This document shows, one piece after another, positions 23,268-27,761 of a DNA stretch of 64,000 nt. The translations under genes were made by a program, and so were the position numbers. Within the stretch, counting starts at the first letter, position 1; every line of letters begins with the position of its first letter. The stretch covers positions 9,229 to 73,228 of the forward strand of contig DASRGB010000021.1 of assembly GCA_035651255.1 (NCBI GenBank), given 5' to 3'. Source of the stretch: Pseudolabrys sp. (GTDB lineage: Bacteria; Pseudomonadota; Alphaproteobacteria; Rhizobiales; Xanthobacteraceae). The notes beneath the pieces are model-generated. The model saw only the letters and a list, made by a program, of their open reading frames with translations, did not search any database and was not told where the DNA came from.

Positions 23268-23331
23268 GGGGTTCGCCCGCTTTCTATGGAGGCGCGCAGA
23301 GGCGCCGATGCCGAGAATGCCGCCAAAACCG

Positions 23332-23347
23332 TTAAGGCGCGATTAAC
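23332..23347 (+). promoter_or_regulatory. CtrA binding site
   Basis: Exact TTAA-GGCGCGA-TTAAC, between the secreted-protein gene and cysS. Confidence 0.65.
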
Positions 23348-23555
23348 CGAGGTTTTCCGCCCGTTCCGCGCCGGTTGGCGGGCCTTGACGGGCCGCGCCC
23401 AAGTCGAGCATTGTGCGCCGTGATGAACGGCCTTAACCAAACTCACGGCATTTGCCGCGAGATTATTCGCTAGCGCACAACGCTGGCTGCGGCCGTCTTT
23501 TCTCAAAGTTGAGAGCGTAGGACGCCCGGCCAGCGGGGCCGATAGGTATCCGTCT

Positions 23556-24920
23556 ATGGAGCTCAGGCTCTACGATACGCTGACGCGGGACAAGCGGCCC
23601 TTCGTGCCGATCGATCGCTCGCGCGTGCGCATGTATGTCTGCGGGCCGACGGTCTACGACTTCGCCCATATCGGCAATGCCCGGCCGGTGATCGTGTTCG
23701 ACGTGCTGTTCCGCCTGCTGCGCCACATCTACGGGCCGGACCACGTCAGCTATGTGCGCAACGTCACCGACGTCGACGACAAGATCAACGCCCGCGCCGC
23801 CGAGCGCGGCATTTCCATCCGCGAGCTGACGGAGGAGACCTACAGAAACTTCAAGGCCGACGTCGCGGCGCTCGGCTGCCTTGAGCCGACGGTGGAGCCG
23901 CGCGCCACCGAGCACATCGAGCAGATGAAGGAGATCATCGAGCGCTTGGTGAAGAACGGCTGCGCCTACGTGGCGCAGGACCACGTGCTGTTCCACGTCG
24001 CGGCGATGAAAGACTACGGCAGGCTGTCAAATCGCTCGCTCGACGAAATGATCGCCGGGGCGCGCGTCGAGGTGGCGCCGTTCAAGAAGGACCCGATGGA
24101 CTTCGTGCTGTGGAAGCCGTCGAAGCCGGGCGAGCCGTCCTGGCCGTCGCCCGCCGGCATCGCGGCGCCGGGCCGTCCGGGCTGGCACATCGAGTGCTCG
24201 GCCATGGCCTGGAAGCACCTCGGCGAGACCTTCGACATCCACGGCGGCGGCATCGATCTCGTCTTTCCGCACCACGAGAACGAGATCGCGCAGTCGCGCT
24301 GCGCCTTTCATACCAAGGTGATGGCGAATTATTGGATGCACAACGGCTTCTTGCAGGTCGAAGGCGAGAAGATGGCGAAGTCGGCCGGCAATTTCGTCAC
24401 CATCCATGAGTTGCTGCGGGATTGGCCGGGCGAGGTGCTGCGCCTCAATATGCTGCGCACGCATTACCGCCAGCCGATCGACTGGACGGTGAAGGGGCTG
24501 GAGGAGAGCACCAAAGTTCTCGACGGCTGGTACGATCTGACCGCCGATGCCGCGCCCGGCTATCTTTGCGCCGACGCGCTCGATGCCTTGGCGGACGATC
24601 TCAACACACCGAAGGCGCTGGCCGCGCTGCACGAGTTGCGCGCCGAGGCACTCAAGGGCGCAAAGCCGGCGGCGGCCTGTCTCAAAGCCAGCGCGCAATT
24701 GATCGGCGTATTGCAGGGCACCGCCGCCGACTGGAAGGCGCGGCGCCGCGCTTCGGCCGCGATCGACGAAAGTAAGGTGGCCGGCTTGATCGACGCGCGC
24801 AATGCCGCGCGCAAGGCCAAGAACTTCAAGGAGTCCGATCGCATCCGCGACGAACTCGCCGCTATGGGGGTCGTGCTGAAGGATTCCAAGGATGGCACCA
24901 CCTGGGAGATCGCGCGATGA
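23556..24920 (+). CDS. cysS: Cysteine--tRNA ligase
   Basis: [39 protein letters not shown]. Confidence 0.98.
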
Positions 24921-25096
24921 TCGGGGTGACGTGCCGCGCGCTCTTGCCTGCTTCTTTCCCCGCAAGCTGGGGAGCGTTGGGGATGGGGCGCATTGTTCGC
25001 GCGGGAAGCGATAGATGCCCCCTCCCGACGCGCTACACGCGTCGACCTCCCTCGCAAGCGGGGGAGGTGACGGAGAGATGGGAGATCGCGCGATGA
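24903..25096 (+). repeat. 18-bp direct repeat of the cysS 3' end flanking palindromic element 1
   Basis: TGGGAGATCGCGCGATGA at 24903-24920 and 25079-25096. Confidence 0.95.
24951..25070. repeat. Palindromic intergenic element 1 (CIR/RIME-like), degenerate
   Basis: Terminal hairpins CCCCGCAAGCTGGGGAG and CTCCCTCGCAAGCGGGGGAG; about 50 bp near-identical to the element at 26025-26154. Confidence 0.8.
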
Positions 25097-25115
25097 CGGC
25101 GAGGCGCACTCTGAA

Positions 25116-25245
25116 ACCCTCTCCCCTTGTGGGAGAGGGTGCCGAGCGGCGAAGCCGCGAGGCGGGTGAGGGGGCTTTTATCGGCTCCCCCTCACCCGGC
25201 CGTTCGCTGCGCTCGCGTCCACCCTCTCCCACAAGGGGAGAGGGT
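25116..25245. repeat. Palindromic intergenic element 2 (CIR/RIME-like)
   Basis: Perfect 25-bp terminal inverted repeat ACCCTCTCCCCTTGTGGGAGAGGGT, each arm itself a hairpin; internal GGGTGAGGGGG/CCCCCTCACCC repeat. Confidence 0.9.
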
Positions 25246-25262
25246 AAGAAGAGGCTTGCCCG

Positions 25263-25763
25263 ATGAGTGCGCAGGCGCATCCCAAATTGGCGCTGCGGCC
25301 GTTCCTGTCGGCCGACGCGCCGATTCTGGCCGAAATCTTCCGCGCCGCGATCGCGCAACTGACCGGCGACGACTACAGCGAGGCGCAGCAGGAGGCCTGG
25401 GCCTCCGCCGCCGAGGATATCGACGAATTCGGCAGGGACCTCGCCTCGCAACTGACGTTGATCGCGACGCTCGACGGCTCGGCCGTGGGCTTTGCCTCGC
25501 TCGAAGGCAAGGACAAAATTGGAATGCTCTATGTGCACCCGGCGGTGGCCGGGCAGGGGGTCGGCGCCATGCTCATCGACGCGCTGGAGAAGCTCGCCGG
25601 CTCCCGCGGCGTCGCCAGGCTCAGCGTCGATGCCAGCGACAGTGCGCGCGGCTTCTTCGAGAAGCGCGGCTATGTCGCGCAGCAGCGCAACTCGATTTCG
25701 CTTGCCGGCGAATGGCTCGCCAACACCACGCTGCACAAGCAGCTCGCCAAAGGGAGCGCCTGA
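25263..25763 (+). CDS. GNAT family N-acetyltransferase
   Basis: LYVHPAVAGQGVGAML, ARGFFEKRGY. Confidence 0.9.
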   Translation: MSAQAHPKLALRPFLSADAPILAEIFRAAIAQLTGDDYSEAQQEAWASAAEDIDEFGRDLASQLTLIATLDGSAVGFASLEGKDKIGMLYVHPAVAGQGVGAMLIDALEKLAGSRGVARLSVDASDSARGFFEKRGYVAQQRNSISLAGEWLANTTLHKQLAKGSA

Positions 25764-25879
25764 TGGACAAGCCCGACACCCCGTTCCCGCGCCACTGGCT
25801 CTATTACATCGTGCTGAAATACGGCGTGCTCATCGCCGCTCTGCTGCTCGCGTTCTATGTCGTCTACCGGCTGACCTGA
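25763..25879 (+). CDS. Small single-TM protein (38 aa)
   Basis: MDKPDTPFPRHWLYYIVLKYGVLIAALLLAFYVVYRLT; TGATG overlap with GNAT, GGGAG RBS. Confidence 0.6.
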   Translation: MDKPDTPFPRHWLYYIVLKYGVLIAALLLAFYVVYRLT

Positions 25880-25965
25880 TGGAAATCCGGCGTCACCATA
25901 TCGTGCTGGCTGTCGTCGCGCTCATCGTCGCGATCGCGGTGGCCGCGAACTATTACCTGTGGTGA
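25879..25965 (+). CDS. Small single-TM protein (28 aa)
   Basis: MEIRRHHIVLAVVALIVAIAVAANYYLW; TGATG overlap with the previous ORF. Confidence 0.5.
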   Translation: MEIRRHHIVLAVVALIVAIAVAANYYLW

Positions 25966-25970
25966 GAACA

Positions 25971-26022
25971 ATGGCGCGGGAGCGGCTTTATCTCTGCGAC
26001 ACCACGCTGCGCGACGGCGCGC
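25971..26022 (+). pseudogene. Displaced duplicate 5' end of cimA
   Basis: Encodes MARERLYLCDTTLRDGA versus cimA MKERLYLFDTTLRDGA, then runs into palindromic element 3. Confidence 0.85.
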
Positions 26023-26024
26023 CC

Positions 26025-26154
26025 TTCTTCTCCCTCCCCCGCTTGCGGGGGGAGGGTTGGGGAGGGTGCTCTTTGCACTTGGGCGTCCCGAAAAGCGCCC
26101 CCTTCCGACGCGCTACGCGCGTCGACCTCCCCCGCAAGCGGGGGAGATGAAGAA
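26025..26154. repeat. Palindromic intergenic element 3 (same family as element 1)
   Basis: Inverted arms CTCCCCCGCTTGCGGGGGGAG and CTCCCCCGCAAGCGGGGGAG, with outer TTCTTC/GAAGAA. Confidence 0.9.
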
Positions 26155-26168
26155 AAGAGAGGCCGCCG

Positions 26169-27761
26169 ATGAAAGAACGCCTCTACCTGTTCGACACGAC
26201 GTTGCGGGATGGCGCGCAGACCAACGGCGTCGACTTCACGCTCGCCGACAAGCTGGCGATCGCCCAAATGCTCGACGAGCTAGGCATCGACTATGTCGAA
26301 GGCGGCTATCCCGGCGCCAACCAGACCGACAGCGAATTGTTCGCCAGGGACCGCGAGCTGAAGACGACGTTCACCGCTTTCGGCATGACGCGGCGGCCGG
26401 GGCGCTCCGCTTCGAACGATCCGGGCCTTGCCGCCTTGCTCGAAGCGAAAGCCGACGCCATCTGCTTCGTCGCCAAGTCGTGGGACTATCACGTCAAGGT
26501 CGCGCTCGAGACCACCGAGGCGGAAAACCTCGCCTCGATCCGCGACAGCGTGCGTGCCGCCAAGGCGAAGGGCCGCGAAGTGCTGCTCGACTGCGAGCAT
26601 TTCTTCGACGGCTACAAGGCCAACCCCAGCTACGCGCTGGCCTGCGCCAAGGCGGCCTACGACGAGGGCGCGCGCTGGGTCGTGCTGTGCGACACCAATG
26701 GCGGCACGCTGCCGCACGAGGTGGAAGCGATCGTCGCCGCGGTCTGCAAGGTCATCCCCGGCGATCGCGTCGGCATCCACGCCCACAACGACACCGAGCA
26801 GGCGGTGGCCAATTCGTTCGCCGCCGTGCGCGCCGGCGCCCGCCAGATCCAGGGCACGCTCAACGGTCTCGGCGAGCGCTGCGGCAACGCCAACCTGGTC
26901 TCGCTCATTCCGACGCTCAAGCTCAAGCGGGAATTCGCCGACCGCTTCGACATCGGCGTCAGCGACGCCGCGTTGAAGAAGCTCGCGCAGGTCAGCCACG
27001 CCCTCGACGAGCGGCTCAACCGCGCCCCCGACCGCCACGCGCCCTATGTCGGCGACAGCGCCTTTGCCACCAAGGCCGGTATTCACGCCTCCGCCATCAA
27101 GAAAGACCCGGCGACCTACGAGCACGTCGCGCCGGAGCGCGTCGGCAACAAGCGCAAGGTGCTGGTGTCGGAGCAGGCGGGACGCTCGAACGTGCTGGCC
27201 GAGCTCGACCGCATCGGCCTCAAGGTCGACAAAAACGACAGCCGCATCGGCCGCCTCCTGGAGATCGTCAAGGAGCGCGAGGCCATCGGCTATGCCTACG
27301 AGGCGGCGGACGCCTCCTTCGAGCTGCTGGCGCGGCGCACGCTCGGCACGGTGCCGAATTTCTTCGACGTCACCCAGTTCGACGTCAATGTCGAGCAGCG
27401 CAACAATGCCAAGGGCGAGCGCGTCACCGTCACGCTGGCCGTGGTCAAGGTGAAGATCGGCGACGACAACATGATCTCGGCGGCCGAGGGCAACGGCCCG
27501 GTCAACGCGCTCGACCTGGCGCTGCGCAAGGACCTCGGCAAGTACCAGAAATACATCGACGACCTCAAGCTCACCGACTACCGCGTCCGTATTCTCAACG
27601 GCGGCACCGAGGCGGTGACGCGCGTTTTGATCGAGAGCGAGGACGGACAGGGCGAGCGCTGGACCACCATCGGCGTGTCGGCCAATATCATCGACGCCTC
27701 GTTCCAGGCGCTGATGGATTCGATTATCTACAAGCTGGTGAAGTCGGGCGCGCCGGGTTAA
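26169..27761 (+). CDS. cimA: Citramalate synthase (LeuA-like)
   Basis: DTTLRDGAQ, EGGYPGAN, CDTNGG, HAHND, GERCGNANL, C-terminal regulatory domain. Confidence 0.93.
   Translation: MKERLYLFDTTLRDGAQTNGVDFTLADKLAIAQMLDELGIDYVEGGYPGANQTDSELFARDRELKTTFTAFGMTRRPGRSASNDPGLAALLEAKADAICFVAKSWDYHVKVALETTEAENLASIRDSVRAAKAKGREVLLDCEHFFDGYKANPSYALACAKAAYDEGARWVVLCDTNGGTLPHEVEAIVAAVCKVIPGDRVGIHAHNDTEQAVANSFAAVRAGARQIQGTLNGLGERCGNANLVSLIPTLKLKREFADRFDIGVSDAALKKLAQVSHALDERLNRAPDRHAPYVGDSAFATKAGIHASAIKKDPATYEHVAPERVGNKRKVLVSEQAGRSNVLAELDRIGLKVDKNDSRIGRLLEIVKEREAIGYAYEAADASFELLARRTLGTVPNFFDVTQFDVNVEQRNNAKGERVTVTLAVVKVKIGDDNMISAAEGNGPVNALDLALRKDLGKYQKYIDDLKLTDYRVRILNGGTEAVTRVLIESEDGQGERWTTIGVSANIIDASFQALMDSIIYKLVKSGAPG

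Follow-up and report, generated by a model that had tools for sequence, protein, structure and literature searches.

The locus lies in a 64-kb window (the whole stretch of DNA that was analysed) and carries on the forward strand the genes cysS, a GNAT acetyltransferase gene and cimA, with hairpin repeats in the cysS-GNAT spacer and at the 5' end of cimA. The features, in window positions, are as follows:

23556-24920, forward strand: cysS (cysteinyl-tRNA synthetase), 454 aa, ending WEIAR*; orthologues of 60-87% identity in 77/80 related loci.
24903-24920, forward strand: junction copy A, where cysS natively ends; it holds the Shine-Dalgarno (SD) sequence GGGAG (24904-24908), an ATG (24917) and the TGA of cysS (24918-24920).
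24917-25096, forward strand: candidate relay ORF 1, 59 aa, from the ATG on the cysS stop through element 1 to its end in the duplicated WEIAR*.
24921-25078, no strand assigned: element 1, a 158-nt type C hairpin repeat with ~24 related copies in the genome.
25079-25096, forward strand: junction copy B, an exact 18-nt duplicate (18/18) with an SD, an ATG at 25093 and a TGA at 25094-25096.
25088-25108, forward strand: left copy of an older duplication flanking element 2, GCGCGATGACGGCG-AGGCGCA, 18/22 identical to 25258-25279.
25093-25266, forward strand: candidate relay ORF 2, 57 aa, ending KRLAR*, from copy B through element 2 to a TGA on the GNAT ATG.
25110-25256, no strand assigned: element 2, a type B hairpin repeat of ~147 nt with the purine-rich right end TAAGAAGAGG.
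25258-25279, forward strand: right copy of the older duplication, GCCCGATGAGTGCGCAGGCGCA, which is the present working GNAT start.
25263-25763, forward strand: GNAT acetyltransferase, 166 aa (Pfam Acetyltransf_10/1/7); orthologues in 80 loci.
25763-25965, forward strand: two micro-ORFs, of 38 aa (25763-25879) and 28 aa (25879-25965).
25971-26150, forward strand: relic cimA start MARERLYLCDTTLRDGA and a 59-aa ORF through element 3, whose stop lies 18 nt before the working cimA ATG.
26023-26157, no strand assigned: element 3, another type C hairpin repeat, set in the 5' end of the cimA coding sequence, with its left module at 26032-26068.
26169-27761, forward strand: cimA/leuA-like citramalate or isopropylmalate synthase, 530 aa, with the present start MKERLYLFDTTLRDGAQ (Pfam HMGL-like, LeuA_dimer).

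The 18-mer TGGGAGATCGCGCGATGA that ends cysS occurs exactly twice in the window, at 24903-24920 and, 176 nt away, at 25079-25096; with up to three mismatches it is expected 0.29 times per window, and no third match is present. Each copy holds GGGAG 8 nt 5' of its ATG, and three consecutive ATGA overlaps (24917-24920, 25093-25096 and 25263-25266) link cysS to GNAT. These features had been described in the first-pass annotation and are borne out here: the exact recurrence of the cysS end at 25079-25096 with its stop, GGGAG and ATG by a search of the 64-kb window, and both the 59-aa ORF that opens at 24917 and ends in WEIAR* and the 57-aa ORF that runs from 25093 to KRLAR*, with its stop on the GNAT ATG, by the ORF list. 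The frame of the second ORF is open over 25015-25266; it closes with a TGA (25264-25266) that overlaps the ATG of GNAT (25263). Beyond GNAT, the two micro-ORFs are tied to GNAT and to each other via TGATG overlaps and are kept in most relatives; in Bradyrhizobium the first micro-ORF sits between cysS and GNAT. A promoter and terminator scan of 23300-26400 found none between cysS and cimA, the sigma-70 consensus being a weak test for Alphaproteobacteria.

The 342-nt cysS-GNAT spacer is present at 99.9% identity in two other public assemblies, and the arrangement is thus not an assembly artefact. Both were retrieved by a look-up of the exact GNAT protein; they are filled alike, and no empty allele came to light. 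The public sequencing runs that contain this stretch are soil and mine metagenomes. Wider comparison covered 80 related loci out of ~315 relatives found, many of the comparator genomes being MAGs, some of them long-read, in which indel errors are possible (for example, in the locus L002). An uninterrupted cysS/GNAT ATGA junction is seen in ~50 of the 80, mostly with the same 18-mer, identical or nearly so. Judged from this alignment of relatives, the 18-mer is the ancestral overlapping cysS-stop/GNAT-start junction, duplicated on both sides of element 1. The flanks of element 2 can likewise be identified as an older 22-nt junction duplicate that reaches into the GNAT 5' end; its left copy corresponds to a decayed junction plus the first GNAT codons, and its match score lies at the 99th percentile of mismatched-flank controls. 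The flanking duplicates agree at 18/18 positions for element 1, 18/22 for element 2 and 35/52 at cimA. The first-pass annotation had proposed that the insertions duplicate the stop/RBS/start junction, of which the doubling of the ancestral junction around elements 1 and 2 stands, whereas the insertion process itself as the maker of the copies is what we infer. Among the type B and type C copies genome-wide, no flanking direct repeats rose above mismatched-flank controls, save those of the three locus copies and one or two marginal ones. The duplicate was also considered as an SD+ATGA cassette borne on the right end of the element, an idea rejected because the flanks of 175 modules lack the junction and because the 18-mer occurs only twice in the window; a purine-rich GAAG(A/C)GAG tail is all that is common to the right-end flanks of those modules.

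Elements 1 and 3 share 77% identity. The left module of element 1 is a degenerate BoxC/PIT-like one and its right module is CTCCCTCGCAAGCGGGGGAG, while both of its ends match the ends of elements that encode a DUF559 protein. Element 2 has outer arms of 26 nt (25116-25141 and 25220-25245) that are 100% complementary, and an inner hairpin at 25163-25198; its two halves, left and right, match the ends of the DUF559 element C77:17086-17579 with 83-86% identity. The genome holds ~22 full copies of type B, 12 of type C and 175 terminal modules, and the terminal inverted repeats, small size and many dispersed copies are traits of MITEs. The predicted RNA folds reach -84, -119 and -90 kcal/mol for elements 1, 2 and 3, respectively, and -240.7 kcal/mol (z=-8.6) for the whole cysS-GNAT spacer. 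An Rfam scan of 24000-27000 returned sub-threshold chance matches only, and BLAST of element 2 against E. coli genomes gave no match.

The same modules flank 5/6 of the DUF559 elements in this genome and 18/21 in the genus. On these matches the repeats are classed as BoxC/PIT-like hairpin modules and as ORF-less derivatives of DUF559-nuclease mini-elements. The mini-elements likewise sit at stop/start junctions, and a DUF559 gene with no other cargo lies at the same pheS-pheT site in about one-third of the sampled genera. The full-length DUF559 ORFs run through the right terminal hairpin in the PSPxRGEG frame, often ending on the start of the next gene. Type A repeats show the same behaviour without a DUF559 parent. 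A RAYT as mobiliser was rejected, as the lone weak Y1_Tnp gene (C49:13496-13786; 25.3 bits) has a different flanking palindrome, GGTGGGCAAAGGCGC. To our knowledge, DUF559 is not known as a transposase, and the literature searches found no paper that ties DUF559 to mobile repeats. In the PD-(D/E)XK classification, DUF559 falls into one group with Vsr and a homing endonuclease (PMC3424549). It is tentatively proposed, at a confidence somewhat short of probable, that the DUF559 mini-elements with their hairpin ends and derivatives may be undescribed 'translationally transparent' selfish elements. Such elements would settle in the stop/start overlaps of operons, essential ones among them (such as pheS-pheT, mraY-murD, murC-murB and aroA-cmk), duplicate 10-50 nt of the junction and lack promoters. 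Their nuclease gene, or in the derivatives a stop-free frame, would be expressed by coupling to the host gene upstream and would hand the ribosomes on to the one downstream, with DUF559 as the mobilising or homing nuclease.

The duplicates might also have another history, in which a filled allele (junction-element-junction) arose rarely and then spread from lineage to lineage by homologous recombination or nuclease-driven homing; the 18/18 match would reflect a recent import or conversion, and no target-site duplication would accompany each insertion. The distribution of the filled loci is consistent with such spread, the same site being filled in scattered lineages with empty sisters, and unrelated families share the boundaries of the 18-nt duplicate (type A in L068 and L027, which have near-exact junction duplicates, 17/18 each, after the type A element; type C in the window). 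However, the extents of the duplicates differ by insert (18 nt, 22 nt, ~15 nt in L002 and 37-52 nt at cimA), which fits independent events. At cimA, the relic copy is close to that of the closest relative and the working copy to those of the distant filled loci L010 and L057. Most genomic copies have no detectable flanking repeats, which would be expected under spread, but old duplicates in non-coding DNA would have decayed past detection. The homing endonuclease in the nuclease clade of DUF559 (PMC3424549) also points towards homing. Taken together, spread of a ready-made allele is possible but doubtful.

As for the function of the arrangement, the hairpin inserts in the cysS-GNAT junction are probably crossed by ribosomes via the relay ORFs, which would couple GNAT expression. 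The ancestral cysS and GNAT overlapped by ATGA (…TGG GAG ATC GCG CGA TGA, with the GNAT ATG within CGATGA), and the ancestral GNAT SD, GGGAG, was part of the 3' coding sequence of cysS. This junction would then have been entered by two non-autonomous hairpin repeats, element 2 earlier and element 1 after, each leaving a junction duplicate on both sides (~22 nt around element 2, 18 nt around element 1). In the parent mini-elements of the two repeats, BoxC/PIT-like hairpins form the ends and enclose a gene for a DUF559 (Vsr-fold) nuclease. Since the old initiation site is retained on the cysS stop, ribosomes ending cysS, or binding GGGAG, would start at 24917, cross element 1, stop at the duplicated TGA, restart at the ATG at 25093 and cross element 2. 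Translation of ORF 2 would end at the TGA lying on the GNAT ATG, and GNAT would be started through termination-reinitiation, a type of coupling that ATGA/TGATG overlaps mediate (PMC6728339, PMC12548453). The relay ORFs would thus be translated, the translation would unfold very stable hairpins that otherwise bury the GNAT ribosome-binding region, and the benefit would be the coupled expression of the downstream gene. The predicted unpaired probability is 0.98 for the ORF 2 ATG (25093) and 0.15 for the GNAT SD-like sequence AGAAGAGG, which is mostly paired.

The frame of the inserts has been kept across relatives. In 19 related loci the cysS-GNAT junction is filled by palindromic repeats, which belong to three families (A, B and C). 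All 19 keep a frame that opens at the ATG overlapping the cysS stop and closes on or beside the GNAT ATG, a count that includes L069, with a restart 3 nt past the preceding stop, and L002, with an apparent frameshift at the GNAT start, both outside the strict chain criteria. The hop ORFs in these loci (n=20) span 37-91 aa in ~19 different lengths, whereas the alternative two frames across the inserts are stop-free in just 15/40 cases. The filled loci are scattered among empty sisters, with at least 14 gains or losses on the cimA tree, and the probability for phase alone is (1/3)^14 ~ 2e-7. Similar bridges are found at other junctions. For example, 7/8 filled mraY-murD junctions are bridged, as are 12/17 filled pheS-pheT junctions; among the mraY-murD bridges are ORFs of 56, 62 and 140 aa that have an ATGA at either end. 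At the cimA start of L010 and L057, the ATGA that closes the relic ORF sits on the new ATG of cimA.

The genome-wide test covered 215 repeat-bearing co-directional spacers, with an in-silico deletion of 1 or 2 nt as the control. Strict ATG relays numbered 18 in the real phase against 1 and 4 after the 1- and 2-nt deletions (binomial p=1.3e-5), and with all start codons there were 38 relays against 12 and 15 after the shift (p=2.8e-5). A relay is present in just ~8-18% of the repeat-bearing co-directional spacers of this genome and hence is not a property of every copy. The conserved frame in 19/19 loci together with the genome-wide phase excess places the frame relation far beyond chance. The first-pass annotation had called for a comparison of orthologous loci to see if the frame is kept, which the in-phase relation in 19/19 answers in its favour; its caveat that open frames are common in GC-rich DNA is correct for openness alone (15/40). 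Its larger claim, that a ribosome relay is preserved so that strong hairpins do not silence the downstream genes, gains from the comparative tests at this junction (19/19), at the other junctions and genome-wide as far as the relay goes, whereas the protection from silencing is a suggested effect.

The conserved phase implies selection on translation across the insert, which is compatible with positive coupling or with a mere avoidance of out-of-frame ribosomes. The latter would make the ORFs a matter of damage limitation and not of delivery: the orphan site on the cysS stop would fire anyway, its ribosomes would have to stop at or before the GNAT start, and GNAT would initiate alone on the SD-like end of the element. 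The SD and ATG on the cysS stop are indeed intrinsic to the junction, element ends give the purine-rich SD-like sequences GAAGAAAG/GAAGAGAG just 5' of downstream starts, and GNAT has its own purine-rich SD-like sequence from the element end, by which independent initiation is possible. That SD-like sequence of GNAT is, however, predicted to be base-paired, and in nearly all cases the stops sit exactly on the downstream ATG (ATGA/TGATG). The relic ORF at the cimA of the window, which stops short of the ATG with AGAGAGG between, accords with damage limitation. Damage limitation as the explanation is thus unlikely, and it is not mutually exclusive with delivery.

It is far less probable that the small ORFs are kept as functional peptides or are simply remnants of the DUF559 reading frame. 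The passage of full-length DUF559 ORFs across the right hairpin, often to the next start, would suit a remnant, but the in-frame joining to the stop and start of the host genes is not inheritable from a parent element, and the type A repeats without such a parent behave alike. The coding-potential scores are negative (-0.71 bits/codon for ORF 1 and -0.93 for ORF 2, against +0.56 to +0.74 for real genes), neither ORF 1 nor ORF 2 has a match in Pfam, and the peptide sequences are wholly different among the families A, B and C at one junction. Chance open frames in stop-poor 66% G+C DNA, with accidental frame relations, are hardly credible, given that against the 15/40 stop-free alternative frames and the many long spurious ORFs of the region stand 19/19 filled junctions in phase and open despite ~19 lengths and at least 14 state changes, the genome-wide phase test (18 vs 1 and 4) and the replication at mraY-murD, pheS-pheT and cimA.

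The relay principle itself is already known for the MIRUs (mycobacterial interspersed repetitive units), and the relay proposed for the cysS-GNAT junction is a variant of it. As summarised in a review (Supply et al., 1997, via PMC12548453), MIRUs insert at start codons and have an internal ORF coupled at -4 nt. In that summary they are, like the present repeats, dispersed short repeats in the intercistronic regions of operons, their ORF overlaps the flanking stop and start (-4 nt), and little effect on downstream expression is presumed. The repeats described here similarly lie between co-directional operon genes at the downstream start, with an ORF that overlaps the stop and start by -4 nt. 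However, MIRUs are 40-100-bp units of Actinobacteria, often in tandem (VNTR), which do not form long nested hairpins and for which no associated nuclease gene is known. Here the elements are single, palindromic and MITE-like, of 130-170 nt and -84 to -119 kcal/mol, in an uncultured, Pseudolabrys-like member of the Alphaproteobacteria, with 18-22-nt junction duplicates and full-length relatives that encode DUF559. The precedent chosen in the first-pass annotation, the Rickettsia palindromic elements (RPEs), fits less well than MIRUs, as no fusion protein is made here. RPEs are also palindromic with an open frame through the element (PMC10969869), but they lie in genes and are translated within the host protein, whereas here cysS retains its stop and GNAT its start, the host proteins are unchanged, and the ORFs of the elements would form cistrons of their own, coupled at both ends.

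The terminal modules have the architecture of BoxC/PIT/TMECO repeats, CCCTCNCCC N3-6 GGGNGAGGG N3 GGGNGAGGG (Bachellier; Maher; Holder et al., 2015, PMC4666352). This genome holds 14 strict and 95 loose matches to that consensus; element 3 fits it with 2 substitutions (26032-26068), element 1 is degenerate, and element 2 has the hairpin with the third block 25 nt off. Both groups are intergenic, with loci that are unusually variable. The BoxC/PIT/TMECO publication reported no link to mobile elements and found no function (PMC4666352), whereas the modules here are the ends of DUF559 mini-elements or their derivatives, at stop/start junctions bridged by ORFs. Chunjie, a MITE from Geobacter uraniireducens (Chen et al., 2008, via PMC10969869, PMC3184786), is comparable in its terminal inverted repeats, direct repeats and stable RNA fold; it differs in that its direct repeats are of 9 bp and the element is A+T-rich, and these secondary accounts give no relay-ORF logic. 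REP/BIME and REPIN-RAYT systems likewise consist of extragenic palindromes, rich in G+C, that occupy the spacers of operons and affect mRNA and translation close to stop codons (PMC5082802), but the sole RAYT-like gene here is flanked by GGTGGGCAAAGGCGC… and not by type A, B or C modules. Br-REP1/2 of Bradyrhizobium (PMC5082802) were set aside, being different sequences. Free-standing homing endonuclease genes resemble the DUF559 elements in being small cargo-free nuclease genes at the same site, pheS-pheT, in many genomes and genera, but the hairpin ends and the abundant ORF-less derivatives at hundreds of unrelated sites are transposon-like and unlike site-specific homing, and cleavage and homing here are putative. 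For repeats of Alphaproteobacteria, the literature searches found no account of relay ORFs.

If the relay holds, it would explain how very stable hairpins pile up in closely coupled operons, essential ones among them, without harmful polar effects, and it would extend the MIRU principle, proposed once, to another phylum and another class of elements. For annotation, the short repeat-made 'hypothetical proteins' at operon junctions would then be coupling devices and not protein genes. If the proposal on the DUF559 mini-elements is true, both a large domain of unknown function and the BoxC/PIT repeats, orphans for 30 years, would gain a function. As the enzyme behind BoxC/PIT-type repeats, DUF559 is a candidate that can be tested, and this side result may outweigh the main one.

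The junction between cysS and the GNAT acetyltransferase gene harbors an 18-mer, TGGGAGATCGCGCGATGA, whose exact copies, searched for in the whole window, lie at 24903-24920 and 25079-25096 only and stand on either side of element 1, a hairpin repeat; no further copies with up to three mismatches are present in the window (0.29 expected). The features of this junction and of the region downstream are as follows.

24903-24920, + strand: first 18-mer copy, the last five codons of cysS and its stop
24917-25096, + strand: ORF1 of 59 aa, start ATG overlapping the cysS TGA, terminating in the duplicated WEIAR-stop
25093-25266, + strand: ORF2 of 57 aa, start ATG within the second 18-mer copy, TGA (25264-25266) overlapping the GNAT ATG at 25263
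25763-25965: micro-ORFs of 38 aa (MDKPDTPFPRHWLYYIVLKYG…) and 28 aa (MEIRRHHIVLAVVALIV…NYYLW), conserved family-wide and chained by TGATG
25971, + strand: relic cimA start, MARERLYLCDTTLRDGA
26023-26157: element 3, a hairpin repeat within the 5' coding end of cimA, between its relic and working starts
26169, + strand: working cimA start, MKERLYLFDTTLRDGAQ

The recurrence of the 18-mer, both ORFs and the stop/start overlaps had been described in the first-pass annotation and are correct to the base. The same spacer is found at 99.9% identity in two further public assemblies, which rules out an assembly artefact as the source of the arrangement. Element 2, the second hairpin repeat, is flanked by a longer, older duplicate reaching into the first GNAT codons (25088-25108 versus 25258-25279, 18/22 identical), and was likely inserted before element 1.

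A comparison was made with 80 orthologous cysS-GNAT-cimA loci, chiefly from MAGs labelled Pseudolabrys, Xanthobacteraceae or Bradyrhizobium. In about 50 of the 80, cysS and GNAT overlap directly in the form …ACCTGGGAGATCGCGCGATGATGGCC…, with the GNAT ATG within CGATGA and GGGAG 8 nt upstream, which shows the 18-mer to be the ancestral stop/RBS/start junction. Palindromic repeats directly follow the cysS TGA in 19 related loci (filled, as against empty junctions) and belong to three families, namely type A (CTCTCCTTCGTCATGGCCGGGC…GCGGGCATGACG), type B, which resembles element 2, and type C, which resembles elements 1 and 3. A 17/18 copy of the junction follows the type A element in L068 and L027. 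All 19 filled loci contain an ORF running from an ATG on the cysS stop to a stop overlapping the GNAT ATG or directly next to it. Most loci need one hop, and L027 and the window need two; in L069 a micro-gene intervenes first and the relay follows it, restarting 3 nt past the stop. The hop ORFs (n=20, 37-91 aa) come in about 19 lengths, each a multiple of three, and the alternative two frames over the same inserts are stop-free in only 15/40 cases. On the cimA tree, filled loci occur here and there next to empty sister loci, and the state changes at least 14 times in total (at least six for type A, five for type B and four for type C), and the chance of phase alone over 14 changes is about (1/3)^14 = 2e-7. 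Hence, the comparison of orthologous frames with controls that the first-pass annotation had suggested finds every filled locus in phase rather than random frames, and indicates selection for an unbroken frame from the cysS stop to the GNAT start.

The first version of the chain test failed at locus L002 owing to an apparent 1-nt frameshift in the first GNAT codons (about 2491-2501) of this long-read MAG, which is probably a sequencing error. The cysS/GNAT site also takes whole genes, since a 155-aa Cys-rich gene occupies it in eight or nine relatives (L005, L007, L026, L036, L063, L070, L071, L072), always with a gap of 466 or 469 nt and with ATGA or TGATG coupling at both ends. By eye, this gene looks GFA/CENP-V-like (CQCGAVRF…CHCRMCQKAFG).

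The end of cysS still contains the former GNAT initiation site (GGGAG-N8-ATG), which would therefore fire regardless of the sequence that comes next. After each insertion, the duplicate junction would provide a stop, an SD and a new ATG, giving a chain from cysS through ORF1 and ORF2 to GNAT via -4 overlaps, of the kind known for termination-reinitiation coupling (PMC6728339, PMC12548453). The predicted folds of elements 1, 2 and 3 reach -84, -119 and -90 kcal/mol, respectively, and that of the whole spacer -240.7 kcal/mol (z=-8.6); element 2 has perfectly complementary outer arms of 26 nt plus an inner hairpin. The SD-like AGAAGAGG of GNAT is paired in the predicted fold (P unpaired 0.15) and the ORF2 ATG is free (0.98), and a translating ribosome would unfold this structure. 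In the spacers, no site resembling a promoter or terminator was found. The idea, put forward in the first-pass annotation, that the duplicated junction would preserve a ribosome relay across the inserts is supported by strong comparative evidence at the sequence level.

At cimA, a duplicated 5' end (25971-26220) encloses element 3, its copies being identical at 35/52 nt with mostly synonymous differences. The relic start shares 93% DNA identity with the true start of the closest relative, and the working start is similar to the filled alleles of the distant loci L010 and L057. In these two loci the relic cimA ORF crosses the element and its stop overlaps the new ATG as ATGA; the window's relic ORF ends 18 nt upstream of the working ATG, before AGAGAGG. 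As for the micro-ORFs, the first (38-aa) one sits between cysS and GNAT instead in Bradyrhizobium, and in the GNAT-cimA interval of L066 a roughly 60-nt perfect palindrome (CAGGACCAATTGACCATTATC…GATAATGGTCAATTGGTCC) lies in frame in the 38-aa membrane micro-ORF, lengthening the micro-protein. The operon of L010 is conserved apart from a roughly 1.4-kb insert that separates GNAT from the micro-ORF, lies on the opposite strand and resembles an IS transposase gene.

Relays also occur elsewhere. In a rough gene call of the 4.0-Mb genome, 215-241 pairs of co-directional genes had a spacer holding repeat modules, and 38-40 of these pairs had a strict overlap relay, for example at mraY-murD, murC-murB, aroA-cmk, pheS-pheT and tsaD-gpsA. 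When 1 or 2 nt were deleted mid-spacer in silico, ATG-only relays numbered 1 and 4 versus 18 in the real phase (p=1.3e-5), and relays with all start codons 12 and 15 versus 38 (p=2.8e-5). Among 30 genomes of the family, 22 mraY-murD junctions are short or ATGA and eight are filled, seven of the latter being bridged, including by ATGA-to-ATGA ORFs of 56, 62 and 140 aa across repeat mosaics; at pheS-pheT, 12/29 junctions overlap and 17/29 are filled, with 12 of the 17 bridged. The phase null together with the mraY-murD, pheS-pheT and cimA cases argues that the relay is recurrent and phase-selected, and limited to a minority of repeat copies, those within coupled operons.

The duplicates would fit a long target duplication of variable length, as they measure 18, 22, about 15 and 37-52 nt. 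A spread of ready-made filled alleles, through recombination or through homing driven by a nuclease, would fit equally, as two unrelated repeat families have identical 18-nt duplicate boundaries and, at cimA, the relic copy is native-looking and the working copy like distant filled alleles. No flanking duplicates are detectable at most other repeat copies of the genome. The frames might also be kept as damage limitation, so that orphan ribosomes terminate before they translate across GNAT in the wrong frame; this is not exclusive of ribosome delivery, but the placement of the stops exactly on the downstream ATG favours coupling. An RPE-type in-frame fusion was rejected for the window elements.

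The terminal modules of the elements broadly resemble the published BoxC/PIT/TMECO pattern CCCTCNCCC N3-6 GGGNGAGGG N3 GGGNGAGGG, which has 14 strict and 95 loose matches in the genome; element 3 fits with two substitutions. The relay 'ORF' at pheS-pheT in this genome is a gene for a DUF559 protein (Pfam 7e-41; closest structure 3HRL); it crosses the same hairpins and has ATGA at both ends.

G000 (this genome) C77:257945-258446, locus L111/L145: DUF559 mini-element with hairpin ends at pheS-pheT
L115, L119, L122, L123, L127, L131, L135, L138, L150, L152, L160: pheS-pheT DUF559 elements in other loci

Such an element lies exactly at pheS-pheT in 9/29 genomes sampled across genera and in three further genomes of the genus, often ATGA-coupled to both neighbour genes, and about half of all DUF559 ORFs terminate on or beside the start codon of the following gene. 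Modules of type B or C stand on both sides of 5/6 DUF559 genes in this genome and of 18/21 element-type copies in the genus. The halves of element 2 match both ends of one DUF559 element (83-86%), other DUF559 elements match the ends of element 3 (92-100% over 21-41 nt), and these shared ends identify the window repeats as putative ORF-less derivatives of DUF559 mini-elements. A conserved gene of roughly 420 aa with a weak DUF559-like C-terminal domain (60-72 bits) and without hairpin modules (G000 C32:61724-62966; orthologues L155, L156, L165-L168) looks like a non-mobile relative, either domesticated or ancestral, of the nuclease carried by the elements. The genome has one RAYT-like (Y1 transposase) gene (G000 C49:13496-13786), and a different REP (GTAGGGTGGGCAAAGGCGCG…) flanks it in inverted copies; this REP also forms an extra hairpin inside the type A elements of L025 and L027.

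The mycobacterial MIRU is a dispersed repeat proposed to insert at start codons with an ORF coupled at -4 nt, leaving the host gene little disturbed (Supply et al., 1997, as summarised in PMC12548453). The window case would work by the same start-codon insertion and -4 coupling, but it differs in phylum, the lack of tandem units, the long nested hairpins, the junction duplicates and a nuclease-encoding parent. The modules resemble BoxC/PIT/TMECO repeats; the published study of those repeats saw neither a mobile-element link nor a function, and no literature linking DUF559 to such repeats was found. The start-codon repeat with a coupled ORF follows a principle already proposed for MIRUs, and the connection between DUF559 and BoxC would be the most novel possibility.
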